Assembly (NCBI RefSeq): GCF_030384885.1
Contig: NZ_CP128614.1
DNA: 64,000 nt
Direction: 5' to 3' (one strand)
From: Escherichia coli
GTDB taxonomy: Bacteria > Pseudomonadota > Gammaproteobacteria > Enterobacterales > Enterobacteriaceae
Part shown: positions 19,877 to 58,403 of the stretch, piece after piece
Layout of the letters: each line of letters starts with the position of its first letter
Numbering within the stretch: the first letter of the stretch is position 1
Notes under the pieces: model-generated
What the model saw: the letters and a program-made list of their open reading frames with translations, nothing else
Database searches by the model: none
What the model was told of the DNA's origin: nothing
Translations under genes and position numbers: made by a program

Positions 19877-19913
19877 TAAAAGAAAAAAGGGTTCCTCCGC
19901 TTTAGAGGAACCC
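19876..19913 (-). terminator. rho-independent terminator (minus-strand sense), probably the displaced hok terminator
   Basis: stem GGGTTCCTC...GAGGAACCC followed on the minus strand by a U-run (plus strand AAAAAA at 19883-19888); adjoins the IS186 insertion site. Confidence 0.5.
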
Positions 19914-19969
19914 TTTCAAAAGGTGCCGATGGCATACTAATCCACACCCTGAAAAGAGGGGGGTTGCCC

Positions 19970-21309
19970 CCATAAGCGCTAACTTAAGGGTTGAACCATC
20001 TGAAGAATGCGACGCCTCGGTGCCTCGTTAAGACGATGCCTCGCGTTCTTCAATTGCGTTTTGTAGGCTGTCAGGGATACTGTCCCACGAATGGCCACCT
20101 GTAAGCTCCAGATGACCATTTTTGTTATTCTCCACAACGAGTTAGTTCTTCTTTTCGGATCCGGCACTTCTGGGGGGGAAATCCAGCGATGGCTGGATTA
20201 TGTCGTCAATTAAAAATGCGGCGAGTAGATTAGCAAATATCCACGCTTTCGCGAGTTCAGGTTCCTTTGCACGCAAAGCATCCAGGTGCAGCAAACTTTT
20301 GAGCCGCTTAAAAGCCAGTTCAATTTGCCATCGCAGACGGTAACAATCAGCCACTTGCTCTGCTGAATATTCATCTTCCGGTAATGATGTTAGCAATAGC
20401 ACATGGCCCGCTGCTTCCAGCGTTTCCGCCTGAACTACTCGTCCTTTTCGACGATTCTCGCTGAGCAGTCGGGTTTTACTGATTAATGCTTTTTCGGGAG
20501 GAAGTGATACGGCAATGAGACGTGCCGGAAAGGGAGCTCCGGCTTTTTTATTACCTGAATTGCCTATCATTACAGTGGTTTCACCGTTCTTACCGCAATC
20601 CAGCCCGCGCAGAAAACCCATCATGTCAAAGCGCATTCCTTCTGCAGTTAACCAGCGCAATCCTCGCCAGTGAACCCGGACGATATAATCAGCTTCTCCA
20701 AAAGCAAGTGAGCGGATACATTCGGGACGCGAACCGAATCCCCGGTCAGCAATGCGTATCTCGTCTGCCGTTTGCGCAAATCGGTCCAGCCGTTCAGCGT
20801 CTCTGCTGTCGGTTAGCTCAAAATCAGTGAACTGACAGGTATGAGGATCATATCCCATATGTAGTCGCCATTCAGCGCTGCCGCCCCCGGGCGCACTGAT
20901 TGCTGTTCCATCGACAAGACGCAATCTCTTTCCGCTTGTACAACCCGTAACTGCGGCGCGTACAGCAAGTGTTTGTGCGGCAAGTATGCCAAACCAGTCG
21001 GCGGCATTCCGCAGCCGCTTCAGGAGAGCCACGTCAGATAATGTTGCAACGTCATGGAGCTGAGCCCATGCAGTGACTTCACGTAATGACATCCCCCCGG
21101 GGCCGTAAGCCAGCCCCAGACGTAGCAGAGTTGCAGCATCACGAATTTCGCGGCGGCGGGTTAGAGCCCCGGCATTACGTGCCGAAGTATCCAGTTCTTC
21201 GGGCTTACCAATATGGGCCAGAATTGCTGACCAGTTATCGTGAGAGTAATTCATCGGCACGTTAAATCATATCAGGCGTAATACCACAACCCTTAAGTTA
21301 GCGCTTATG
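19970..21309 (-). mobile_element. IS186 (IS4 family) insertion sequence
   Basis: about 1340 bp bounded by perfect inverted repeats CATAAGCGCTAACTTAAGGGTTG (19970-19992) and its reverse complement (21287-21309); flanked by a direct duplication of about 12 bp (GGGGGTTGCCCC) within a GC-rich palindromic target. Confidence 0.85.
20142..21260 (-). CDS. insL: IS186 transposase (DDE, IS4 family)
   Basis: 372-aa ORF filling the IS; N-terminus MPMNYSHDNWSAILAHIGKPEEL recognised as IS186 transposase from memory. Confidence 0.85.
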   Translation of the reverse strand: MPMNYSHDNWSAILAHIGKPEELDTSARNAGALTRRREIRDAATLLRLGLAYGPGGMSLREVTAWAQLHDVATLSDVALLKRLRNAADWFGILAAQTLAVRAAVTGCTSGKRLRLVDGTAISAPGGGSAEWRLHMGYDPHTCQFTDFELTDSRDAERLDRFAQTADEIRIADRGFGSRPECIRSLAFGEADYIVRVHWRGLRWLTAEGMRFDMMGFLRGLDCGKNGETTVMIGNSGNKKAGAPFPARLIAVSLPPEKALISKTRLLSENRRKGRVVQAETLEAAGHVLLLTSLPEDEYSAEQVADCYRLRWQIELAFKRLKSLLHLDALRAKEPELAKAWIFANLLAAFLIDDIIQPSLDFPPRSAGSEKKN

Positions 21310-21332
21310 GGGGTTGCCCCCCTCTTTGTCAG

Positions 21333-21491
21333 CTACTTACCGGATTCGTAGGCCAGGATAGCAAATACCTCCCTTGTTCCGTCTTTCATCCGCAACTCGC
21401 AAAGCGAGTTTCGTGTGAGCCAGGTGAATATCAACAGCGTTAAACAAACTATTAATATGCACAAAACAATGGGTTGGTTCGGCATTTTCAT
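21333..21491 (-). CDS. hok: Hok/Gef-family type I toxin
   Basis: 52-aa product [52 protein letters not shown], close to plasmid R1 Hok as recalled; the listed 71-aa ORF is an upstream extension. Confidence 0.7.
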
Positions 21492-21589
21492 GGCCTTCTT
21501 CTCCTTGCATTTAAGCAGGCAAGAGGCTACGCTGTGTGTGACTAGCATACAGGGGCCTCGGGTTGTACTGACCCCAGAAAGTTGGACAG

Positions 21590-22441
21590 TTAAACACGAG
21601 GCATATAGGTCTGATTCCGATATTCAATTGGAGTCAGACCTTTTAATTTCAGGCTAATTCTTCTGCTGTTGTAGTATTCAATATATTCCGTAACAGCATC
21701 CTTCAGCTCGCTTATATTACTGAACTCATCAAGATAAAAACACTCCGACTTTAAGGTTCCAAAGAAACACTCCACCACAGCATTATCCAGACAATTGCCT
21801 TTTCTGGACATGCTTTGTTTAATACCATGTTCTTTAAGGATATTTTGATATCTTCTCATACGATACTGCCATCCCTGGTCAGAGTGCAGAACAGGATGCT
21901 CGTGAGGATTAAGCTTTTTGAATGCCTGATCGAGCATATTCTCGACCATGTTCATCACTGGTCTTTCCGAAAGGCTGTAAGAAATAACTTCGTTGTTGAA
22001 GAGATCTATTACTGGAGACAAATACAGCTTGCGCCCATTGACTGCAAATTCAGTAACATCGGTAACCCACTTCTCGTTTGGCCGCGTAGCCTTGAAATCT
22101 CTTTGGAGAACATTGGGGGCGGTTTGCCCTACCTCTCCTCTGTAAGAGCGGTATCGCTTGACCTTAATCGCTGCCTTCAGTGAGAGGATTCCCATCAGGC
22201 GCTGAACAGCTTTATGGTTAATCTGTTTCCCTTCTCGATGAAGAGACAGCGTTACCCTACGGTATCCGTATCGGCCTCTATTCTCATGATAAATCTCACC
22301 AATACGCTTTTTAACGTCCGCATACTTGTCAGGCTTGCTGAGAGCCTTTAGATGGTAATAAAACGTACTGCGCGGTATCTCCGCAGCCCTGAGAAGCTCA
22401 TCAAGAGGATAAAACTGCCTTAGCTCGTTGAGTACTTTCAC
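21590..22441 (-). CDS. insK: IS150 transposase OrfB (DDE catalytic domain)
   Basis: 283-aa ORF overlapping orfA in the -1 frame; integrase-core motifs ([16 protein letters not shown]) typical of IS3 OrfB. Confidence 0.85.
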
Positions 22442-22959
22442 TTTTTCGTGGGATGAGCTAAGGCTTTCAGCTTTTTTAGATACACAAGCCGCGTTTCAAG
22501 AAATCGAACTTGCCTTTCAAGATCCTCAATGCGTCGGTCTTTTGACAGCTCCAATGCTGATGCCGCTTTTTCTGGATCAACTGATATTGCAATGTTTCTT
22601 TTGGTGCCAATCTTGAGCGCGCGTAAACCAGCTTCTCCGCGCTCTTCATAAACCTTCAGCCACCTGGCTACAGAACCACTACCAGCAAGCATAAAGTGAG
22701 CAGCAGCCTGATTAAGGGACATGTGCTGCTCGATCACCGCTTTCACGACCTTAATACGCAACTCAGGATCAGCACTAACACCTTTAGGTTTGGGAATTAA
22801 ACCTTTTTCTCCATGTTTTTCATAGAGGGCAACCCATGTCCTGACCTGGGTTCGGGGGACACCAAAACGTGCCGAGATGATCCTGTAACCATCATCAGTA
22901 GTGAAGTAGTGATTCACGACTTCAAGGCGCTTTTCAAAAGGGTATTTTGGCTTTGACAT
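22438..22959 (-). CDS. insJ: IS150 transposase OrfA (HTH)
   Basis: 173-aa ORF MSKPKYPFEKRLEVVNHYF... recognised as IS150 InsJ from memory. Confidence 0.85.
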   Translation of the reverse strand: MSKPKYPFEKRLEVVNHYFTTDDGYRIISARFGVPRTQVRTWVALYEKHGEKGLIPKPKGVSADPELRIKVVKAVIEQHMSLNQAAAHFMLAGSGSVARWLKVYEERGEAGLRALKIGTKRNIAISVDPEKAASALELSKDRRIEDLERQVRFLETRLVYLKKLKALAHPTKK

Positions 22960-23291
22960 ATCAGGGGCTATTCCATTTCATCGTCCAACAAAATGGGTGC
23001 AGTACAGGTTAATTGAAAAATTACTCGGGGCTTTCTGCTTTTACCACAGTCAAACAGTGTTACCGCTGGCTGGGGCAAAAGCCTCCAGCACCAGCGTCAT
23101 TATATCACTCTGCCCTGATCAGCCAAACACCCTGCCTGCATAAATCATTGATTTATAATTTATTTGACATGAGTCACTTCCGGTTGTCGGAGACAGTCTT
23201 TTTACACTAAAGAAAAGGGTAACGGGCAGCTGCTTGGTCGGAACATACAGTGCAGTTCCTGCCCGTTTAATTTCCGGATGCAATGGTAGGA

Positions 23292-36582: not shown

Positions 36583-37053
36583 TCAATGATTATTTTTTTC
36601 TTCTAATTTTTTTATGACATTCCCATGCTTTTTACCACACCATGCTTGTTTCCTACCCATAATAAGCAAAACCATTGGCTCGGTCGCTTTCAGTCCGGTT
36701 CGCCAAGACCTTAGATCAGTACTTGATGGCTGTGGGAAATCTTCGGGATGCGTATGCCATTCGCCCAAATAGACTAGAAAACCGTCTGATTGCTGAAATA
36801 AGTCATCCACTTTTTGCTGGTGATGTTTGCTTTTTCTTTCTATTCGTAATCGCGATCTTATATCACCTGCGCCTGGTTCTGATATGTGGGTGATGACAAT
36901 GTGTTTCCCACGACGTTCTCCAATAAGGATTCCTCCTGCCTCGGTACTGGCATGATGTAATTGACGATATAAATACAACCGCTGCACAACATCACTCATG
37001 ATGACGACATGATTGTAATCATCATCGATAAAAACTAACTCAGTTATGTTCAT
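36583..37053 (-). CDS. cap3: CBASS Cap3 (JAB/JAMM isopeptidase)
   Basis: 156-aa ORF with EWHTHPEDFPQPSSTD (HxHx7Sx2D JAMM motif); overlaps the cap2 stop by 14 bp. Confidence 0.75.
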   Translation of the reverse strand: MNITELVFIDDDYNHVVIMSDVVQRLYLYRQLHHASTEAGGILIGERRGKHIVITHISEPGAGDIRSRLRIERKSKHHQQKVDDLFQQSDGFLVYLGEWHTHPEDFPQPSSTDLRSWRTGLKATEPMVLLIMGRKQAWCGKKHGNVIKKLEEKNNH

Positions 37054-38809
37054 TGCAGATAGGACAGTTAGGCTGATGTGGCAAAAACTGAGGTTTCAGT
37101 GAACGTCCACCTTCTAACATATGCTCGTTGTAAGTCCATTTGAGGTCAGGCTCAAGAGTACTCAAGACTGCCTGTTGAGCCAAAGATGCCGTTATATTAC
37201 TCACCGCCGCATCATAAGATGTGTATGTGCTACCACAACTTTTATTTTTTTCACTTGAGATATCGAGGTTGTAAAATCGGGAATCGATACCATTATGGTA
37301 TTTTGCTGGATTAGTAACCATACATCCATAGCAGCTTCGGCCATCATCGATTAAAACTTTGGATGCTCGTCCATTACCATCATTGAAGGCGTGGATAATA
37401 ATAGGTCTTTGCTCACAGGGAATCTGTCTTACGATAGCCGCAATACGCTTGGAAACAGGAGGTCGACCTGTTGCATCGATAATAATGTCATATTTTTTCA
37501 TAACATCAATACTGATGGGGAATTGCTTATAAAATCCTTCTACTCTGGTCTGTAAATGCACAGAGTCTTGAAGTTTTGTTGCGAGTGAGAGCGCTTTGGA
37601 CCACCCAAAATCATGTGAAGGTAAAATGTGACGACCAAAATTACTAGGACGGTAGATATCATCATCAAATAAATGCAGTAAACCTTTCCCACAACCGGCA
37701 CCGTTTCGGAGTAACAATTCTGCAATATACCCACCAATGGTTCCGCAACCAACTAAAGCTATACGCTTATCGGATAAGCATTCTTTGCTTCTCCTTTGGG
37801 CATTTCGGCTAAGGAGGGTTGCCATATCAGCGCGAACCACACCCAATCGTTTATATGAGGCGCATACATTTTTACCAGCTAACAATGTGGCAAGTTTGGA
37901 CGTTGATTTTTTAGCTGATCTCTTGTGCCTTCTGAAATCAACAGCGTTAGTATTTAACTCAATATAGATGGCAAATATATCTTGATTGAAAATGTCGAAT
38001 AAAAAAATATATCTTTTCTTCCCCTCTGTTGTGATGTAGTGAACCACTCTGTCCCTGGCATTATGGTCCGCATTTTCTAGCCAGTCCAGTAATTCGCGGA
38101 ATGAAGTCGGTGGCCATTTCATCCCAGCAAGACGATTAGGGTTTACAGAAATATAATGAGTGTTGATAGAATAATTTTTCAAAGATTCTTGACGAAGGTA
38201 TCTTTGATTAAGCCATTTTTTTAAAATGGTTTCAGAGTCCTCGGGAGAGGATTCTTGGACAGTTATATATTCTAGCCTGGGAGAACCATCAGGAAATGTT
38301 GACTCTGAAAACAGTGTCTTAAGTCTGATCCCGCGGCTTGCTTTTGATAAAATATATAAACTATCACTAGGTCGCCAGTAAGTTGCAAATTCACCTTCGA
38401 GTTCTCTCTTATCATTCAGGCCATTAGTAGCGGCTAAAACTGAATTAATCAGTGTTCGGTGAATCTGGGCATCGACTTCTTTGTACGTACCCTCAAGGTT
38501 GTTTGGATCCCAATCAGCTTCCAACTGCTCTACATAACAGAGAATTCCTTCTTGGCTTATGTGAGGCATAAGGCGATCTCTGAACTTTTCAGGCAGATCA
38601 ACTATGCAAGCTAATGGCAGTTCCGTAAAAGGATCTGGCCGAATAACTAGTGCTACATTGAAATTTCCGGCTTCGGTTTCATATTCTTTCGTATAATAGC
38701 CTTTCAGGCGTTCCTGACTGTGTAGGAACGCCTTTTCAGGAAGTTTGCGGGCTAGCGTATAGCGATACCCGCACTCTATCATCATTTTATGGAGCCTTCC
38801 TTCCTCCAT
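37040..38809 (-). CDS. cap2: CBASS Cap2 (E1/E2 ubiquitin-like conjugation enzyme fusion)
   Basis: 589-aa ORF; Rossmann/ThiF-like ALVGCGTIGGYIAELLLRNGAG in the C-terminal half; start overlaps the CD-NTase stop. Confidence 0.75.
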   Translation of the reverse strand: MEEGRLHKMMIECGYRYTLARKLPEKAFLHSQERLKGYYTKEYETEAGNFNVALVIRPDPFTELPLACIVDLPEKFRDRLMPHISQEGILCYVEQLEADWDPNNLEGTYKEVDAQIHRTLINSVLAATNGLNDKRELEGEFATYWRPSDSLYILSKASRGIRLKTLFSESTFPDGSPRLEYITVQESSPEDSETILKKWLNQRYLRQESLKNYSINTHYISVNPNRLAGMKWPPTSFRELLDWLENADHNARDRVVHYITTEGKKRYIFLFDIFNQDIFAIYIELNTNAVDFRRHKRSAKKSTSKLATLLAGKNVCASYKRLGVVRADMATLLSRNAQRRSKECLSDKRIALVGCGTIGGYIAELLLRNGAGCGKGLLHLFDDDIYRPSNFGRHILPSHDFGWSKALSLATKLQDSVHLQTRVEGFYKQFPISIDVMKKYDIIIDATGRPPVSKRIAAIVRQIPCEQRPIIIHAFNDGNGRASKVLIDDGRSCYGCMVTNPAKYHNGIDSRFYNLDISSEKNKSCGSTYTSYDAAVSNITASLAQQAVLSTLEPDLKWTYNEHMLEGGRSLKPQFLPHQPNCPICNEHN

Positions 38810-40110
38810 CAGCCGCTTACCATCGTGGTGTTAATTTTTACAGGCGCCTGCTCCTTAGACGGGGAGATTTGAAATGCAGGAGCCGCAGCAATTGAAGTTA
38901 TTAACGAGGCATTAGTTACTCGTTTTCCAAACGCATTGTTTATCTTACGTAATGCTTCTTCCCTGCTACTTGAACTCTCTGCATCAAGCAAAATCCCCTC
39001 TAAATTTCTCATGGTTTCAACGATGGTTCTCTGATGTACGTTATGATCGCATTCGGCAGGGAAAAGTAACTTTTCATCAGTATCGTCGGGACTTTCCAGA
39101 CCGCGACAGAATTCATTAGGTAGTAATCTTGCAACTAGTTTCATCGTCCCTGTGAGGTCTGAACCATTATGTGCTTCTCTGTCGAGGATGTTTACAACTG
39201 CAGCCATCAGGCTAATAGATGAAGGACCTCCCACTTCCCATTGGGCATCTCTCCAGGCCTTCATAAAGCGGCAAATTGAACGGAGATGACCGCCAATACG
39301 CTTGCAACTATCATTAAACCAATCTTCAACAATTTTGGGGTCGCTGATCGACCACCTTCTTGCACCCTGACGCAGCGCTAAATTAACTTTGTCAGGTTCT
39401 ACTAGATATGCCTCGCGCATATCCATGTTTGCTGATAAAGACTCGAACATGGAGTCGGCACTTTTTATGATGTGTGCTGAATCGGCTGCAGTTTGTTTGG
39501 TCTGAAATTGCTCTTTGGGGATCGCATACATCGGTACGTCGATGTGTGTTTTCTCGTGAGGAATTTTGATGCGTCCGCAGGTGTTTTTTTCTTCATATAC
39601 CCATCCATCGTTTTCAGCCTCTAACGATTTCAGTGACGTATCAACGAGCAGAAGAAGTAAGGTGTGCCCAATACTGGGTTCGGATTCAAAGACCGTCATT
39701 GGCATGTAGGTGCCGTCATCGATATCCATTTCCTGACCCGGGTGAAAAGGTCTGTTTAACGTATCGTATTGAAAACTCCCTTGGGTCCAGAAGCGAGGTT
39801 GAAATTTGATGAAGTCATCACGAGCTACATCTTCCATTTCAAAAATGAGTCGAGCGAGAGTCTCACGGTCTGAGGGAGAGAGGTAGCGAACATTAGTTTG
39901 CTCCAGTTTAAATCTAACGCTTTCAAGCGTCAGAGTTTGCTTTCTGGCGTCTGTAGCAATTTGACGAGCTTCTTTAAACACATCCCTCGTTCTTTCACGG
40001 ACTTTCTGGCGAAGTGCTTTCAGTTTGTCGGATTCAGTCTTACCCAATTTTAGTTTACTGATTAAGCCATCCACACTATGGCTGTAGTAATTGTTAAAAT
40101 CCCAACGCAT
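38809..40110 (-). CDS. dncV: CD-NTase, DncV-like cyclic dinucleotide synthase
   Basis: 433-aa ORF; NTase motif QGSFQYDTLNRPFHPGQEMDIDDG; long stretches match Vibrio cholerae DncV as recalled (MRxxWNFxxYY N-terminus, RFWTQGSFQYDTLNRPF, C-terminal NxAFGxRVTN...STMVSG). Confidence 0.85.
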   Translation of the reverse strand: MRWDFNNYYSHSVDGLISKLKLGKTESDKLKALRQKVRERTRDVFKEARQIATDARKQTLTLESVRFKLEQTNVRYLSPSDRETLARLIFEMEDVARDDFIKFQPRFWTQGSFQYDTLNRPFHPGQEMDIDDGTYMPMTVFESEPSIGHTLLLLLVDTSLKSLEAENDGWVYEEKNTCGRIKIPHEKTHIDVPMYAIPKEQFQTKQTAADSAHIIKSADSMFESLSANMDMREAYLVEPDKVNLALRQGARRWSISDPKIVEDWFNDSCKRIGGHLRSICRFMKAWRDAQWEVGGPSSISLMAAVVNILDREAHNGSDLTGTMKLVARLLPNEFCRGLESPDDTDEKLLFPAECDHNVHQRTIVETMRNLEGILLDAESSSSREEALRKINNAFGKRVTNASLITSIAAAPAFQISPSKEQAPVKINTTMVSG

Positions 40111-41180
40111 CAGTGGATCTCCTGCGCATTCATGCGCTTAAAGGGTTTTGCGGGAGTAGTGAAAAAATTCTTAAGCTTCTGATCTTGAGCGAACTCAACA
40201 TTGGCGAGCTGCCTTCCCCTTGCGCTTAAATTTTCAAGGGAACTCTTCGTGGCATTATCCAGGGTGATATCACTGGCTGCTTCATTGGGGATAATTTCAT
40301 CCAGGTAGATGTAGTTATCCACCGCGTCATGGAGCATAAGCTCACGCTGTAGCATATTTTTATGAAGATGCTGGTTAGCTGTCATGGTTGTAAGCACCAG
40401 CCGTTTTCCCATACCCCAGAGACGACAGTAGCCATTCCACCATGTTTTGCTCAACAACTTTGGACTAAGTGAATACTCTTCACCAACAGTACCGATATTA
40501 AGTATATGTATGTCTTTATGGGTGACGCTGAAGTCAGAATTCATATCCCTGAAAACTTCCAGAAGTCCTATGTAGCTGGGGTTGTTTGCGACCAGACCAC
40601 CATCGGCAAAATATGCGCGGAGATCCTCACAATAGTGTGGGGAAAAATACGTTGGCGCGGCTGAGGTTGCCAGTGCGGCATCTATCAATTTAAGAGGCCC
40701 ATCACGAGTAAAATCTGGGTTGTGTGGTGTCTTGAAAAACTGCGGTTTTCCTGTTGAAAGGTTTACTGCCGGGATCATTACTCGCCGGGTTAGGTCATTG
40801 AATGTGGTTTCAGCCCCAATCATTTCTTGAATTGTTTCGCGAAGAGGATGGCTGCGGTAGATAGGAGCACAAAGTGATCTAAGCAAGTTGGTCAGGGACC
40901 ATCTTTTGGGAAAAATGTCATTCGCCCTATCGAAGAACACTCGTTCCAGCTCACGGGCACTTTTTCCTGTAGCAAGGCCGAGAGCTAATATGCCGCCTAT
41001 TGATGTCCCTGTAATGAGGTCAAAATAATCGCCAATTTTAATATCCTGATTAGGGTATTTGCTGGCAAGTATCCTCTCAATCTCAGAAAGGACACTGATC
41101 GTAAACATTCCCCTGGCCCCCCCGCCATTAAGACTTAGTATCCGCACGCCATAGTGATTTCCTGCACTTATGTCAGACAT
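40110..41180 (-). CDS. capV: CBASS effector CapV (patatin-like phospholipase)
   Basis: 356-aa ORF with patatin motifs GGGARG (oxyanion), GTSIGG (GxSxG nucleophile) and DGG; stop overlaps the dncV start. Confidence 0.85.
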   Translation of the reverse strand: MSDISAGNHYGVRILSLNGGGARGMFTISVLSEIERILASKYPNQDIKIGDYFDLITGTSIGGILALGLATGKSARELERVFFDRANDIFPKRWSLTNLLRSLCAPIYRSHPLRETIQEMIGAETTFNDLTRRVMIPAVNLSTGKPQFFKTPHNPDFTRDGPLKLIDAALATSAAPTYFSPHYCEDLRAYFADGGLVANNPSYIGLLEVFRDMNSDFSVTHKDIHILNIGTVGEEYSLSPKLLSKTWWNGYCRLWGMGKRLVLTTMTANQHLHKNMLQRELMLHDAVDNYIYLDEIIPNEAASDITLDNATKSSLENLSARGRQLANVEFAQDQKLKNFFTTPAKPFKRMNAQEIH

Positions 41181-45992: not shown

Positions 45993-46433
45993 TTATTTTA
46001 TTCTTACTATCTGGCCTTGTTTTAAAGCTTTTATCTCTTGTTCCAGCGCTTCAATACGTGAACGTGCAACCCTCAGCGCATGGGAGAGCTGATGATGTTC
46101 AGCCGCCATCACTTCCAGACGACGTTTCATATCAGATGCTTTTACACGGTACTGAATTTTCACTTTACGCTCTTGGTTAAATTTATGTCGCAGGGCTTCC
46201 TGTGACTGATGAGTTAGCCTGCCCTGAGGGGATATTTTTAACCGCAGAATTTCCTCCTGGACGCGTGACTTAAATGCCCCGTAGTAGTAACAGGTTCCGT
46301 TTCCCAGCCCGGCCTCCTCTTCAACAGCACGCACCGACAACTTTCGGTTGTCAGGGATACGTTTTGTCTGACCATCAAGGATCCGTTGTAGTGCAGCTTC
46401 AAGTTTAAGGAGTGTATTTTCTGATTTGCTCAT
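45993..46433 (-). CDS. small coiled-coil protein downstream of the recombinase genes
   Basis: 146-aa ORF overlapping the stop of the 720-aa gene by 4 bp. Confidence 0.45.
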   Translation of the reverse strand: MSKSENTLLKLEAALQRILDGQTKRIPDNRKLSVRAVEEEAGLGNGTCYYYGAFKSRVQEEILRLKISPQGRLTHQSQEALRHKFNQERKVKIQYRVKASDMKRRLEVMAAEHHQLSHALRVARSRIEALEQEIKALKQGQIVRIK

Positions 46434-48592
46434 ACGCCTGTCACCTTAATGGGATGTTCATATGTGTCATAGCCAATCCCATGATCCTGCATAACCCGTT
46501 CCGCAGCCCGGATTTGAGTGATACAGTGGGCATACTCACTGATGCTTAGATCCGTCTGTTGCTGAAGATACATTATCAAAGCATTATGACGTTGCTGCCA
46601 CCACATGGCCTTATCCGTATCGATAATGCTTCCACCGCTACGACAATCCACGCAGAATGCAGGGTTGACCACACCATCCATATCGCAGTCATAGCCGTTT
46701 TTGCAGTAACTATGTAGCGTTCCATGCAAAGTAAGTCGTTTTTCCCTGACCAGTCGATAGAGATTATCCCAGCTACTGTAGATCACAGGCTTATCATTAC
46801 GCATAGCTAGAATGGCTTTGCCAAAACTTCCGCTGAGTTGACTATCCCCGTTAAACCAGCTGTCAAAAAGACTAGTTGTCTGTTCGAGCCTTGCTTCATT
46901 CAGTAATTTAATCAGTTCGCTGTCCACCTGTATTGATTGTAGCCGTGCTTCAACAGCACCGTTCCCATACCATTCACTCATTCGCAGGCTGAGGTGTTTA
47001 AACTGTTGTTTGATTGCGATGGGGTGTCCGAGCTGGTTACGTACGGCAAAGCAGGCGAAAGTTCTTCGAAACTGATGGGTTAAAAGGGGCCAGGCCTCTC
47101 CTGTTCTGATCTTATCTTCTATAGCCCCCCTGTCCCGAGGGTTAAGCTGACGGCACTCTGCGAGTGCCTGTTTATCAACAATAGCACCCACATGTCTGGA
47201 AAAATTTTTTAAACGGTCGTTCCACTTGCTGCGTGAAATGAGGACAGGCAGGTTTTTTCTTTGGTACTGGCTGAGCCACAGATTTCCTGCTGTCTCAGTA
47301 AGCGTATCAGACTGCCCTGGGTCGTTGCTGTGAACCGCTATTTTTAACAGCTGTTCACGAGCACACGCGCTGAGAGCCGTCGCAAGCGATATGGCTTTTT
47401 CAACAATAGGGCTTGCCAGCCATTCTTCATTTTTTTTCCCGGCAGCCAGTTTGTGGGTTGCTGCGCTTACCGAGTGAAAATCCTGTCCATTAATGGTGTA
47501 GGTGTGAAAACTGTCCACATGCAATTCAAATATTTCGCTGACTCTCATTCCTGTGAAAGCACCACAACAAATAAAACAGGCTGCCTGAAGTTGAGCACGA
47601 AAACTGACGAGCCAGTTACCGTCTGCTGCGCTACTGGGCAGGAGTCCTGTTCCGGTGAGATGGTTTTTGATTAGGGTATTTTGCGACCGGGGTGTCGCTT
47701 TATTAATTTCTTCTACATATTCTTTTGAACATAATTTCCCCTGTCCGTTAGTCAGCCATGTCCACTTACCTGTAAGTATTTTATAGTCAACAACGGCACG
47801 CCCGATATCATAATTAGACTGCAGTTCACGTTCTAGCTGGGCTAGTGTTTCTCTGTGGGGCCATGCAAGCTCGACAAGTCTAACGGCTTCTCCATAGAGT
47901 ATATTTGCTATTGCCTGGGGGATGGCCAGGGTTTGCCTGTGTTCTGCTTTATTTTTAGCTGACAGTTTTTTGGCTGTCTGTTTGTAGTTCAGCTGTGGCA
48001 GGTCAAGCTGGAAAGGAAGCCATGAATTTAGTCTTTCGACTGACTGTAGTGCAGAGAAAATCAATTCAACAGTTCGCTTACTAAAGGCTTCACGTTCGAT
48101 ATCGTTTTGTAGCTTTTGCCATATCTCGGGTTTATTGAAGTCAGACAGGCACGTGCTGCCACTATGCAAAAGCGTTAATAAACTCTTTTTTAACCCTAAA
48201 TTGAATCGGGAGGTCAGTGTTGACAGCTTGCAGTCTTTTCCGGAGTGATAATTTTGCTCAAATATCCATCCATATACGATAAGCTTCGCCTGAAGGAGAA
48301 GCGCCGGAGCGGACTCCAAATAGGTAAAGTTAAATTCACGCTGGTTTTTATCCGTTCCCTTATCTGAAGCAAAGGGGCTACAGTCCCAGCAATTTTGACC
48401 AAAATATGCTCGCGTGATGTTATGTTTATCGATACATATTGGGAGCTTATCGAGCGCAGACCAGTTTTTGTTTTTTATCAGAAGTAAAATATCTTCTGTG
48501 GCTCCATACGTCAGAGCGTCTTTATGAAATGAGTTCAACAGAATAGCCATAGTGATCCTTATGTCATATCTGTGCTTTGCACATCTGACCAC
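46430..48592 (-). CDS. tyrosine-recombinase-like protein (third of three tandem genes)
   Basis: 720-aa ORF with AFTGMRVSEIFEL (box I Arg) and LTHQFRRTFACFAV (HxxR) in the C-terminal half. Confidence 0.55.
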   Translation of the reverse strand: MVRCAKHRYDIRITMAILLNSFHKDALTYGATEDILLLIKNKNWSALDKLPICIDKHNITRAYFGQNCWDCSPFASDKGTDKNQREFNFTYLESAPALLLQAKLIVYGWIFEQNYHSGKDCKLSTLTSRFNLGLKKSLLTLLHSGSTCLSDFNKPEIWQKLQNDIEREAFSKRTVELIFSALQSVERLNSWLPFQLDLPQLNYKQTAKKLSAKNKAEHRQTLAIPQAIANILYGEAVRLVELAWPHRETLAQLERELQSNYDIGRAVVDYKILTGKWTWLTNGQGKLCSKEYVEEINKATPRSQNTLIKNHLTGTGLLPSSAADGNWLVSFRAQLQAACFICCGAFTGMRVSEIFELHVDSFHTYTINGQDFHSVSAATHKLAAGKKNEEWLASPIVEKAISLATALSACAREQLLKIAVHSNDPGQSDTLTETAGNLWLSQYQRKNLPVLISRSKWNDRLKNFSRHVGAIVDKQALAECRQLNPRDRGAIEDKIRTGEAWPLLTHQFRRTFACFAVRNQLGHPIAIKQQFKHLSLRMSEWYGNGAVEARLQSIQVDSELIKLLNEARLEQTTSLFDSWFNGDSQLSGSFGKAILAMRNDKPVIYSSWDNLYRLVREKRLTLHGTLHSYCKNGYDCDMDGVVNPAFCVDCRSGGSIIDTDKAMWWQQRHNALIMYLQQQTDLSISEYAHCITQIRAAERVMQDHGIGYDTYEHPIKVTGV

Positions 48593-50334
48593 AGGGGATG
48601 TCGTCCTTCATCAGCAAGTTTTCGACGGGCATGTTGTAGTGTTTTTTGATTCAGTAATTTCAGCCTGCTATCAATGTTTACGATGGTCTGGCCAAAGTTT
48701 TTTGTGTAATGGGCTTTATCCAGGTGAAGGTATTGTGATTCTTCCAGATATTCACGGAAGCTTAACACGCACCATAAATCCGTTACTGATTCGACCAGAA
48801 CCTGATGTTTGCAACTCCAGCAGTTTAACAGGTCAGCACAAGCCAGCGTTTCTTCCGGGGGGATCAGCCCGTTTCTCCTGGCCCGGGAAGTGAACATCGT
48901 GGCCATTGTACCAGCCGTGTCGTTACAATAACTTCCATGGGAGTTTCGTACGGGAGGCGATGCTCTTCTGACATAGGCCTCATATGCCAGCACGCTGACC
49001 TTTTGTGCTTCACGTACTTTCTGTTTTGCAGATTCAATACTCTGCCTGTCCCGGACAACCTGTTCCAGTGTCTGGCTGGTATCCCGGTTCATTTGATTGT
49101 TCTCGTAGGGGTTACCATCAGAATATGCCTGACGGATAGTTTCGGGGGTATTATCAAGCAGTAGTGCAGCCTCGACCGGGCCCTTCAGCGCCAGTGTCAG
49201 ATGACTGCCGGTGGCCCGAAAGCGCCTGGTGACCGGCCACAGCCTTTGCCCTAAGTCGTCTGTCATGGGGAAGTGTACAGAGAGCCAGCTACTTTTGAAG
49301 TCATTCAGCAGGCAGGAACTCATCATCTGGACGCTTTTTTTCCGATGACTATAGGTCGGTAAGAGCAGGCCATCCGGGCCGGGGTCTAACAACGTTGACG
49401 CAGTAATGAGCTGGTCAAAAAACTGTGTTGCGTATTTGGGTATTTCCAGCCGATTGTTGTCACCTATCTCAACAGAGATTGTTTTAAATGCCCGGCGCTT
49501 AAAGGCTGGCATCTGATGCCAGTTATCTGATGGTGTATGGCTGCTGAGTGTCGGTCTTTTTAATGTGTACAGGATGGAGCTGTTGCTCCATGTGTAATAA
49601 CTGAGCAGGTATGCGGCTGCATAAAATAATTTTGATACACCGCTGCGTACAGGATACGTTTTCCCTTTCCAGCAAAAAGTCATTGTTGCTGTGATACCGC
49701 TGGCTTTGATATGTGAATCTGGGTCAAGAATAAACTGGGAGTAAAGTTGCCTGAACAGTCCTCTTAGTAAAGGGAGTAATTTTTTCAGGTCACCATCGCT
49801 ATATCCTCGTGTGGGCTCTGATTGTGTATTTCCCGGGTTTTTAAACCCTGACGTAAACTTTGTACTCCGCCCCATCCAGTTGTATAAGGTTGTCAGGTCT
49901 GCCTTTATCCTGGAGGCTGTGCTGTCTTTGATTTCGCCCCTCCTTTGACGAAGTAAATGACATTTCAACTCTCTGATGAACGTGCTCTCAGACAGGGGGA
50001 TAAGTGCTGGCACCTGACTGTCACAGAAAGTAAAATGCTTTCTTGCAGCATTAAAAATATTATACTTTGTTGCAGGTGTGACATCTTCATGGCCAGTAAT
50101 TGCAATAAACAGTGACTGTACAATGTCATCCCGTGCCAGTAATTGCTCATCCCCCTGTTTTATCAGGTTGGTTTTGGGTATGCCCTTATAGCGAAAGCGG
50201 TTAAAATCTAACAGGGTATGAGCATTGGCGCCATTGCGTATTGGTATACAGAGGTGTTCAACCCAGGGCGTTGTGAGTTTTAATTTGCTGCTCATACTTT
50301 CACTCCAGTAGTGCTCTGTGCATAATTTCATCAA
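48559..50334 (-). CDS. recombinase-module protein (second of three)
   Basis: 591-aa ORF overlapping both neighbours; catalytic motifs not clearly readable. Confidence 0.45.
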   Translation of the reverse strand: MMKLCTEHYWSESMSSKLKLTTPWVEHLCIPIRNGANAHTLLDFNRFRYKGIPKTNLIKQGDEQLLARDDIVQSLFIAITGHEDVTPATKYNIFNAARKHFTFCDSQVPALIPLSESTFIRELKCHLLRQRRGEIKDSTASRIKADLTTLYNWMGRSTKFTSGFKNPGNTQSEPTRGYSDGDLKKLLPLLRGLFRQLYSQFILDPDSHIKASGITATMTFCWKGKTYPVRSGVSKLFYAAAYLLSYYTWSNSSILYTLKRPTLSSHTPSDNWHQMPAFKRRAFKTISVEIGDNNRLEIPKYATQFFDQLITASTLLDPGPDGLLLPTYSHRKKSVQMMSSCLLNDFKSSWLSVHFPMTDDLGQRLWPVTRRFRATGSHLTLALKGPVEAALLLDNTPETIRQAYSDGNPYENNQMNRDTSQTLEQVVRDRQSIESAKQKVREAQKVSVLAYEAYVRRASPPVRNSHGSYCNDTAGTMATMFTSRARRNGLIPPEETLACADLLNCWSCKHQVLVESVTDLWCVLSFREYLEESQYLHLDKAHYTKNFGQTIVNIDSRLKLLNQKTLQHARRKLADEGRHPLWSDVQSTDMT

Positions 50335-51679
50335 GCATAGAGATTTTTTCTTTCAGGGCTTCTTTAGTTTTTAGATAGCGTAAATACTTCCATGTTGTTG
50401 ATTCATTTTTATGCCCCATCCATTGCATCAGCAGGCTGAGTGCATCGGCAGGCTCTATGCCCGCAGTAAGTAGACTGTACAGGCGATACGTTGCATAACT
50501 GCACCTCAGGTCATGAAACTTATGGTCAAATGCGATCCCTGAATTAATCATTTTTTTTCGCAATTCACCAAATCGGGCACCCGTGCTCTGTGGGGTACAG
50601 GGGGAGCCCTGCTGACTAATAAATAAGGGTTCATTTTGAATGGCAGAAACTAAAGATTCAGATCTGATTTTGTCTGAAAAGAGTGTTCCGGGTACGGTTT
50701 TTATTTCTTGCTGACCCATTTTTAACATCGCTTTAATACGCATCTGTAATTTATCAAAGCGGGTCATTCTTCTTTCGCTAATGGCATAGTGCTGTAATTT
50801 ATCTAAAAGAGTATTAGTTATTTCAATCGTTCTTGTTTTATTATATTTAGTGGGTACACCGTTACTAGGTCCAATAGTGATTTCGTAGTGGGTACGTGAT
50901 TCGGTTCTTTGTACAGCCTGATTTAACGCAGTTAAGGTAAATCCTGTGGCTTCTTCAATTCTGAGCCCACATTGTGCTGCCAGCAGACAAATAAGCTGCA
51001 TTTCAACTGAGGTCTGGCTAAGATGGATTGCAAATTCTGTAAGCATTGTTTGCGAAAGTGGTGATAATCTGCGAATATTCAGACTGTTAGAGTCTTTAGG
51101 GACCCTGATACGTAAATCCGTTGTCTGTACGAAAAATTTTGGCTTCATATGTGCCAGTATGTCGTTATTTCTGAATCTGACAAATTCTATGTCAAAGGGT
51201 TTGTTTGTTTCCGTTACCGGAAAGTAGTGCTCATACGCTGCCCAGAGATAGAACTGTACAAGATGACATATATAGGTATTAGCCGTGGAAAAAGCGATTT
51301 CTCCAGTTTTGACCTTTTTTAGCAGCCCATCATTACGGTAGCGATAGGCAGGTTTTAATGCTTTTACTGCAGGAAAGTTATCCCATGCAAGTTCTTCAGA
51401 CTCCAAAAAGCACCAGTAAAATTTTAACGCTCTTGCATAAGAGCTAAGGTTTTCCAGTCTTTTTTCAGCTTTGAGATGTATAAGCCATTGATTTACAGGT
51501 TCTATATAATTACCATCATAACCATACAATGTAGGAAGTGGACCCACATTTCGTCCCCCCCTGAATTCAATCGATTCATCTGTAGTAATGATATCACCAC
51601 CAATAAATACATCTGCTGAGTTGAGTAAATAAGCCAAGAATGCAGACCTCCAATGGTTGTAAACTTCTGCCATGCTCAT
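50300..51679 (-). CDS. tyrosine recombinase / integrase (first of three)
   Basis: 459-aa ORF with CGLRIEEATG (box I Arg), HKFHDLRCSYATY (HxxR) and C-terminal WKYLRYLK Tyr region. Confidence 0.65.
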   Translation of the reverse strand: MSMAEVYNHWRSAFLAYLLNSADVFIGGDIITTDESIEFRGGRNVGPLPTLYGYDGNYIEPVNQWLIHLKAEKRLENLSSYARALKFYWCFLESEELAWDNFPAVKALKPAYRYRNDGLLKKVKTGEIAFSTANTYICHLVQFYLWAAYEHYFPVTETNKPFDIEFVRFRNNDILAHMKPKFFVQTTDLRIRVPKDSNSLNIRRLSPLSQTMLTEFAIHLSQTSVEMQLICLLAAQCGLRIEEATGFTLTALNQAVQRTESRTHYEITIGPSNGVPTKYNKTRTIEITNTLLDKLQHYAISERRMTRFDKLQMRIKAMLKMGQQEIKTVPGTLFSDKIRSESLVSAIQNEPLFISQQGSPCTPQSTGARFGELRKKMINSGIAFDHKFHDLRCSYATYRLYSLLTAGIEPADALSLLMQWMGHKNESTTWKYLRYLKTKEALKEKISMLDEIMHRALLE

Positions 51680-57152: not shown

Positions 57153-58403
57153 TTAAGTCCGATACAGTTCGGCGAGCTCATCCAGCATGGGGTTACTCTT
57201 ATATCCCGGTGCGGCCGTAAAAAGGTTTCGGGAAATCGCCAGCCACTCCATGATTTTGTCCGTCGCCAGCCAACGTCTGCCAAGTCGCTCGGCTGCGATG
57301 GGGACTTTATGCAAGCCAGCGAAGGGATCTACAACAAGATCTCCCGGCTCTGTCAAAAACTCAATCAGAAACGCTGCAAGCCTGGTAGGAGACGTTGCAC
57401 CGTGCAGCGGAAAACCGAGCTCGCGGGCAATGGAATGGCAAAATCTCGTATCAGCGCAGCTATTGCCGTAAAACAAAGTATTCTTGGGGATCGTTCCTTC
57501 TGTTTTATTTCCAAAGGAACCGCTTTTAAGCTGGTACGCCCCATCACCATAAAAGGTCGTGCGATTTTCACCGCCTGCTGCCTGCAATTTTAGATGCTGG
57601 TCTGAATGCGGTTGTAGTACACGTAAGTTGTTTGAACGAACCTTACTCGCATCATTGGTAAACCACAGCACAGGCTCATACGATGAGCAGAGCTGCACCC
57701 GTTGCTTACATGCCCAGTGCGTTGGCGATGGGGGCTTACTGCGATTCACCCACTGAAGCCTGTCCATGAGCTCAAGCCCCAGCTTGTCACATAATGCCAG
57801 TGTCAGACGCTCCAGATACAGAGAACGTGAAGGCCTACCCCTATTAAAGCTATCTTGAGTGATATTCAATGCCACACTTGCGCCCGGTACAAGCTGTTTC
57901 ACGATCGGTTCGAGGATACGCAGAAGCCAGTCAATATAAGCCTGCTCGCCACGCCCCCCTCCGTGCCCGTAGTCTCTTGAATTTCGAAGGAGGTAAGGTG
58001 GCGAGGTCAGGCAAAGATGAATTTGCTCGGTGATATTGCTGAAGAAGGCATAGGCGTTTCCAAAAACCGATGCCCCAAGAGAAGTTGAGAAACCGACAAC
58101 ACAGAGCTTTTCCCATGACTCATGCAGGTTTGTTTTCGTCTTAGAGGCGTATCTCCAGACGCCCCGTTTTTCTGGAACGCGTTCGATGACCCCGGCCTGA
58201 CGGAGAGTCTGCTGAAACCAGCGAACCTTATGTTTGACGCCGCTGGTTCTGGTTTTATCTGACCCAAATTCTTTCAGTTCGTGCAATTCGGCATCCGACA
58301 TGCCAGTTTTACGCTGCACTTCGCGATAAAGCTCGTCGTTGGTCAACGGCGATTCGGAGGCAGCGTAGATATGCGCAATTAAGTCCGTATTAATCGTACT
58401 CAT
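57153..58403 (-). CDS. DNA methyltransferase (N6-adenine or N4-cytosine class)
   Basis: 416-aa ORF with catalytic motif IV LCLTSPPY preceding SAM-binding motif VVDPFAGLH (beta-class order). Confidence 0.7.
   Translation of the reverse strand: MSTINTDLIAHIYAASESPLTNDELYREVQRKTGMSDAELHELKEFGSDKTRTSGVKHKVRWFQQTLRQAGVIERVPEKRGVWRYASKTKTNLHESWEKLCVVGFSTSLGASVFGNAYAFFSNITEQIHLCLTSPPYLLRNSRDYGHGGGRGEQAYIDWLLRILEPIVKQLVPGASVALNITQDSFNRGRPSRSLYLERLTLALCDKLGLELMDRLQWVNRSKPPSPTHWACKQRVQLCSSYEPVLWFTNDASKVRSNNLRVLQPHSDQHLKLQAAGGENRTTFYGDGAYQLKSGSFGNKTEGTIPKNTLFYGNSCADTRFCHSIARELGFPLHGATSPTRLAAFLIEFLTEPGDLVVDPFAGLHKVPIAAERLGRRWLATDKIMEWLAISRNLFTAAPGYKSNPMLDELAELYRT

Follow-up and report, generated by a model that had tools for sequence, protein, structure and literature searches.

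A complete copy of IS186 was found immediately 3' of a hok-family toxin gene on a conjugative IncHI2 plasmid of Escherichia coli, within the stretch of 64,000 nucleotides analysed here and referred to below as the window. The best explanation, which we consider almost certain, is that the element transposed into its target motif at the stem-loop that follows the hok gene of the IncHI2 plasmid. The copy is an ordinary intact IS186 in a G/C palindrome of the preferred type, a situation already known from E. coli K-12 and from plasmid R478. What is new here is limited to the exact length of the duplication, 11 bp on a seven-nucleotide core, the identification of the palindrome with the 3' stem-loop of hok, and the evidence for a recurrent hotspot occupied in two orientations among IncHI2 plasmids. 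The sequence-only reading of the window, which had proposed an IS186 insertion in a GC-rich palindromic target, is supported with small corrections: the duplication is 11 bp long, and the palindrome is the stem-loop just 3' of hok on an IncHI2 plasmid. The coordinates of all features are given in Table 1.

Table 1. Features of the IS186 insertion site, the surrounding hok locus and a CBASS-like operon elsewhere in the window (window coordinates)
Feature	Position	Strand	Evidence and remarks
Intrinsic terminator predicted for the full-length hok mRNA (14-pair stem, then T-run)	19885..19917	-	Terminator scan of the empty allele (L001 3447-3415, minus) and fold
fbi-like element predicted in the hok mRNA (minus-strand sequence GCCAUCGGCACC)	19922..19933	-	MFE fold; GCACC-type boxes of K-12
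Original palindrome, left arm, AAAGAGGGGGG	19953..19963	.	Exact reverse complement of the right arm; fold
Target-site duplication, left copy, GGGGTTGCCCC	19960..19970	.	Present only once in the empty allele L001
IS186 (= IS421/IS186B), complete, 1339 bp	19971..21309	- (strand of the transposase)	Identity with K-12; absent from the otherwise identical locus L001
IS186 terminal inverted repeat, end distal to the transposase start, followed by GAACC...	19971..19993	.	Matches the reverse complement of 21287-21309 at all 23 positions
insL transposase gene, DDE type, 370 aa (371 codons with stop)	20142..21254	-	Pfam PF01609 DDE_Tnp_1, E = 1.6e-26
IS186 terminal inverted repeat, end proximal to the transposase start	21287..21309	.	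Repeat comparison
Target-site duplication, right copy, GGGGTTGCCCC	21310..21320	.	Present only once in the empty allele L001
Original palindrome, right arm, CCCCCCTCTTT	21317..21327	.	Exact reverse complement of the left arm; fold
hok-family toxin gene, 52 aa, MKMPNQ...ESGK	21333..21491	-	Pfam PF01848 HOK_GEF, E = 6e-18; annotated in related plasmids
IS150, 1443 bp, splitting the hok leader and sok region	21564..23006	-	3-bp duplication GGT at 21561-21563 and 23007-23009
5' part of the hok mRNA leader, detached by IS150	23007..23092	-	Reconstruction; -10 box TATAAT just upstream, ~23099-23104
E2/ThiF fusion like Cap2	37040..38809	-	CBASS-like operon
DncV-like cGAMP synthase	38809..40110	-	CBASS-like operon
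Patatin phospholipase	40110..41180	-	CBASS-like operon

The IS186 element

The element is identical to both IS186A and IS186B of E. coli K-12 MG1655 (1339/1339 positions), including the ends, where a difference from the reference would have spoken against the sequence-only reading. The interval 19957-21323, originally proposed for the insertion, covers the element together with both G/C runs. The terminal inverted repeats, CATAAGCGCTAACTTAAGGGTTG, are perfect over 23 bp at both ends. The sole long reading frame, on the minus strand, encodes the insL transposase; the protein starts with MNYSHDNW and is the same as WP_001300563.1, annotated by NCBI PGAP in two related plasmids (L002 and L006) as 'IS4-like element IS421 family transposase'. 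Judged by identity, ends, gene, duplication and target motif, that is, by every defining feature open to testing, this is IS186 of the IS4 family. We observed nothing that contradicts the identification of the element as IS186 at the hok hairpin, and regard it as confirmed.

The copy is complete and presumably active; its reading frame and both ends are intact and the site is occupied recurrently in two orientations, which is consistent with activity. No other IS186 ends were observed in the 64-kb window, and thus the element does not form a composite transposon with another IS186. The length of IS186 in the literature is 1338 bp, compared to 1339 bp between the repeat ends here. The boundary is ambiguous by one nucleotide at each end (terminal C/G), so that 11 bp and 13 bp are both valid readings of the duplication.

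The target site and its duplication

IS186 is known for G/C-rich palindromic targets and duplications of 10-13 bp, the length of which, as Sengstag is said to have noted in 1986, is variable. The 11 bp measured here fall within this range. That one and the same string flanks the element on both sides was noted from the sequence alone, and a 12-mer, GGGGGTTGCCCC, is indeed present at 19959-19970 and 21309-21320; however, the first G of its right copy is the last base of IS186, and the duplication comprises 11 bp rather than 12. With the terminal C/G of the IS186 repeats included, the longest string common to both junctions has 13 bp, because IS186 begins with C and ends with G. A repeat search also found a 41-nt inverted repeat, 93% complementary, which consists of the IS186 repeat plus flank; the 64-kb window has no other inverted repeat that reaches 40 nt.

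The length of the duplication was established by comparison with an IS-free allele. In plasmid pMCR_W5-6 (L001), the locus, ...CCCTGAAAAGAGGGGGGTTGCCCCCCTCTTTGTCAGC..., coincides base for base with the window from which IS186 and one 11-mer have been removed, and the uninterrupted site in related IncHI2 plasmids is GAAAAGAGGGGGGTTGCCCCCCTCTTTGT. Since L001 has no IS186 and a single copy of the 11-mer, the latter is a target-site duplication, and the target was a single palindrome whose arms of 11 bp enclose a 3-nt loop. No IS-free allele with two copies of the 11-mer was seen among the alleles examined. The outer flanks had been described as reverse complements of each other, and the arms of the palindrome are so exactly. 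The target had also been taken for a hairpin-forming sequence; as RNA, the uninterrupted palindrome folds into an 11-bp stem with a 3-nt loop, the energies being -24.6 kcal/mol (minus strand) and -23.9 kcal/mol (plus strand).

The target motif of IS186 is 5'-GGGG(N6/N7)CCCC-3'; it was derived from the 59 sites that were reconstructed among 68 de novo insertions (Lee et al. 2016, PMC5009759). According to the same study, there are few such sites per genome, and single sites are hit repeatedly and in either orientation, one of them in 16 independent events. The site considered here, GGGG(GGTTGCC)CCCC, fits this motif with an N7 core, in agreement with the preference for GC-rich palindromes named in the sequence-only reading. 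The duplication consists of the core and two bases of each run, giving 11 bp. The IS-free 64-kb window contains only one site of the form GGGG(N6/7)CCCC, with ~0.4 expected per pattern from base composition.

A likely course of events may be outlined. A complete IS186 would have transposed into the large conjugative IncHI2 plasmid while the latter resided in an E. coli-type host. Its transposase would recognise the short palindromic GGGG(N6/N7)CCCC motif, here the top of the 11-bp G/C stem-loop 5 nt past the hok stop codon, and presumably make a staggered cut, symmetric about the centre of the motif. Repair of the stagger would double the 7-nt core together with two nucleotides of each G/C run, producing the 11-bp GGGGTTGCCCC.

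The hok locus around the insertion

The gene directly to the right of IS186 is annotated in related plasmids as 'type I toxin-antitoxin system Hok family toxin', and its stop codon is separated from the duplicated target by 12 nt. On the minus strand, the hok stop codon is followed by 5 nt, the G/C stem-loop, a spacer of ~20 nt, the GCCAUCGGCACC box, and the 14-pair hairpin with its T-run. The hok mRNA was rebuilt by removing both insertion sequences, IS186 and the IS150 of the leader, which yields 419 nt from the predicted start after TATAAT to the T-run, and an MFE fold of this single sequence was computed. In the predicted structure, nucleotides 1-8 pair with nucleotides 368-375, the G/C hairpin occupies nucleotides 320-344, and the terminator hairpin is found at the end.

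The hok mRNA of plasmid R1 has its 5' end paired with a 3' fbi element, and its processed, active form ends at a stable stem-loop; the predicted fold shows this classical layout. By analogy, the 3'-processed hok mRNA of the IncHI2 plasmid may end at the G/C stem-loop. IS186 sits between the hok reading frame on one side and the predicted fbi element and terminator on the other, as a spacer of 1.35 kb. Such a spacer should abolish the stable, inert full-length hok mRNA that is needed for post-segregational killing. Thus, judging by the single-sequence MFE fold and the analogy with R1 and K-12, IS186 on an IS150-free plasmid would be expected to cause loss of the inert full-length mRNA and hence of the killing. 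Insertion sequences close to the K-12 genes hokA, hokC and hokE are considered to have inactivated them (Pedersen & Gerdes 1999, cited after PMC6733600 and PMC12214031), and the fbi element and mRNA processing of hokC are thought to be disrupted by IS186 (PMC3562002). A preprint on hok diversity (10.1101/2025.08.07.668861) addresses IS near hok in general terms only, with no IS150, IncHI2 or terminators.

In the window, the hok leader had already been split by IS150 before the arrival of IS186, which probably has no further effect on hok there, as the hok promoter and the leader's first ~86 nt have been cut off by IS150. When the leader is rebuilt with a single GGT, it is the same as in IS150-free plasmids (100% over 300 bp). 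One plasmid with such an IS150-free leader is pAPEC-O1-R (NC_009838), which was also among the matches to the left flank. Two matches to the Rfam family RF01794 (sok/hok leader) flank IS150, at 22930-23093 (46.7 bits) and 21489-21643 (34.4 bits); neither reaches the gathering score of 59. At gathering thresholds, nothing passed in the whole window; at E-value thresholds, these two sub-threshold matches were accompanied by one chance match to mir-15. IS150 is inserted 20 nt past the AAAGCCCC box of the hok leader, and in K-12 hokA/sokA it lies 21 nt past the same box. IS150 insertions beside hok/sok loci recur in evolution experiments with E. coli B (PMC5419217). IS150 seems to have a preferred spot of its own in hok leaders.

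Occupancy of the site in IncHI2 plasmids

The flanks of the element match ~240-kb conjugative E. coli plasmids at 100%. The window begins with a MOBH TraI_2 relaxase gene and a coupling protein gene, and the two related plasmids for which typing was retrieved, L005 and L006, are IncHI2A with a MOBH relaxase. PLSDB was searched with 320-bp junction queries, and records were counted at >=80% coverage (Table 2). The counts with IS150 come from junction searches, and those without IS150 are the totals less these counts. In most PLSDB plasmids that have the locus, the hok leader is split by IS150. In pCFSAN061772_02 (L002), IS186 is inverted relative to the window; its insertion point and 11-bp duplication are those of the window, and the two IS186 copies differ by one base.

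Table 2. States of the IS186 site in PLSDB plasmids and individually checked representatives
IS186 at the site	Plasmids	With IS150	Without IS150	Checked, with IS150	Checked, without IS150
None (empty)	401	387	~14	L001	NZ_CP022165.1
Window orientation (A)	69	57	~12	Window, L006	NZ_CP026933.2
Opposite orientation (B)	70	68	~2	L002	NZ_CP023143.1, NZ_CP025402.1

All six combinations of IS150 (present or absent) with IS186 (none, A or B) exist. Six combinations of two neighbouring insertions require at least five events, barring recombination or precise excision, and therefore the site has been hit repeatedly. So it is a recurrent hotspot of IS186 among IncHI2 plasmids, occupied in two orientations.

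In two records, NZ_CP031547.1 and NZ_CP022735.1, the flank matches are 1 bp closer than predicted from the 1339-bp element and the 11-bp duplication. This could be due to a 1-bp indel in the IS, a variant duplication length or an assembly error. The IS186-occupied allele was observed also in plasmids of Salmonella, Klebsiella, Citrobacter and Kluyvera besides Escherichia (PLSDB H64, H65, H103, H125, H128, H137). If IS186 is an element native to E. coli, the IS186-bearing plasmids in the other four genera suggest earlier residence in E. coli.

Comparison with known systems

The closest parallels are the K-12 loci hokC (gef), with IS186A, and hokE, with IS186B. In both of them, as in the window, IS186 is inserted into a G/C stem-loop ~9-12 nt past the hok stop codon, at a target of the form GGGG(N)CCCC. 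The orientation of IS186 relative to hok in the window is that of hokE, and the other orientation found in plasmids is that of hokC. On the hok strand, the K-12 targets are GGGG(AGTGAT)CCCC at hokC and GGGG(AGTAAT)CCCC at hokE; their cores have six nucleotides, and the 10-bp duplications consist of the core plus two bases on either side. Unlike these, the window site has a 7-nt core and an 11-bp duplication. Besides, the K-12 sites are chromosomal, whereas the site described here is located on a conjugative IncHI2 plasmid and is polymorphic, with existing empty alleles.

All of K-12 hokA, hokB, hokC and hokE have a G/C hairpin in this position, followed by a GCACC-type box. Only hokC and hokE contain GGGG(N6)CCCC together with IS186. 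The corresponding sequences are GGGG-N5-CCCC in hokB and GGG-N8-CCC in hokA, and both the motif and IS186 are absent. The lon promoter, too, is reportedly an IS186 hotspot, described by SaiSree and co-workers in 2001. The hotspots of Lee et al. 2016 (PMC5009759) share with the present site the palindromic GGGG(N6/N7)CCCC motif, repeated hits and both orientations, but they are chromosomal (fimA, menC and others).

Among plasmids, the IncHI2 reference R478 was described as carrying IS186B 'between orf321 and ldrB' and IS150 in the backbone (PMC5955447). This arrangement, as described in the literature, is that of the window and L006. However, the R478 paper names the toxin gene 'ldrB' and gives 5-bp IS150 repeats (PMC5955447), whereas the window contains a Hok/Gef gene and a 3-bp IS150 duplication. 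Other comparisons of IncHI2 plasmids list IS186B as a variable element.

A more distant relative is L005, an IncHI2A plasmid of Citrobacter freundii from a divergent lineage. At its locus 1500-2400, only the hok gene and its 3' region are common with the window (98%). The hairpin has one C fewer, G6-CAA-C5, and still conforms to GGGG(N6)CCCC. Where the window has the hok leader and promoter, L005 has a relBE module, and for this reason it was rejected as a pristine comparator for the leader. The presence of relBE fits the published loss of the relE-orf612 region from R478 at the IS150 site (PMC5955447).

Alternative explanations

The two flanking copies of GGGGTTGCCCC might be an older repeat of the backbone or a chance match within G/C runs, rather than a product of the insertion. 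Indeed, homopolymer runs of G and C easily give short repeats, and the position of the IS186 boundary is uncertain by one nucleotide. However, the empty allele L001 contains the 11-mer just once and agrees with the reconstruction at every base, the empty junction is found in 401 PLSDB plasmids, and K-12 hokC and hokE have the same geometry around unrelated core sequences. As the empty site is single-copy, a pre-existing repeat was rejected, and its probability is negligible. Another possibility is that both orientations stem from one insertion, after which IS186 flipped in place via its inverted ends, so that no hotspot would be needed. The IS186 repeats and the palindromic flank do form the 41-nt, 93% complementary inverted repeat, and the duplication is the same 11 bp in both orientations. 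On the other hand, 23-41 bp is very short for homologous inversion, each orientation is found both with and without IS150, which already demands extra events, three different hok loci are occupied, and repeated hits by IS186 at single sites in either orientation are documented, with 16 independent events in one case (PMC5009759). Given this documented hotspot behaviour, flipping in place is much less likely than repeated transposition, and we consider it very improbable.

A different question is why the insertion is so common. It could have been selected, if loss of hok killing or of its cost benefits the plasmid or the host. IS186 is present in ~14/28 of IS150-free plasmids against 125/512 of IS150-bearing ones (~50% vs 24%; Fisher p = 0.006), although the plasmids are not independent samples and the p-value is only indicative; moreover, both K-12 and evolution experiments provide repeated cases of IS elements inserting at hok loci. 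However, 125 of the 139 IS186 insertions occurred where IS150 had split hok, and no further benefit is expected from them, whereas target specificity alone explains the location, as this is the only motif in 64 kb. Selection is thus an unlikely explanation of the frequency of the insertion. A broader version, in which the G/C stem-loop after hok is a general trap for IS186, occupancy is predicted by GGGG(N6/7)CCCC, and insertions are selected because they disarm post-segregational killing, is similarly doubtful. It would explain the occupancy of 50% with hok unbroken against 24% with hok broken by IS150, and the motif and IS186 do occur together at hokC, hokE and on this plasmid, with neither at hokA and hokB. 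The higher occupancy in plasmids that lack IS150 is no more than a hint of selection for hok inactivation, and it comes from non-independent samples.

Significance and other features of the window

Beyond annotation, the importance of this insertion is small. It provides a fully verified example of target choice by IS186, with an empty site, both orientations and a duplication on an N7 core, and it connects the target motif known for IS186 with an RNA structural element conserved among hok loci. The combined IS186 and IS150 states of the locus are typing markers for IncHI2 plasmids carrying mcr-1 and other multidrug-resistance determinants.

Two further regions of the window, both on the minus strand, deserve mention. 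An operon at 37040-41180 resembles a type II CBASS anti-phage system (Table 1). A DNA methylase with an Mrr_N domain is encoded at 57153-58403, and a recombinase of the phage integrase family at 50300-51679. Beside the methylase and the recombinase, at 46430-50334, there are two large ORFs, for which no Pfam match was found. The methylase, the recombinase and the large ORFs may constitute another defence or accessory island.
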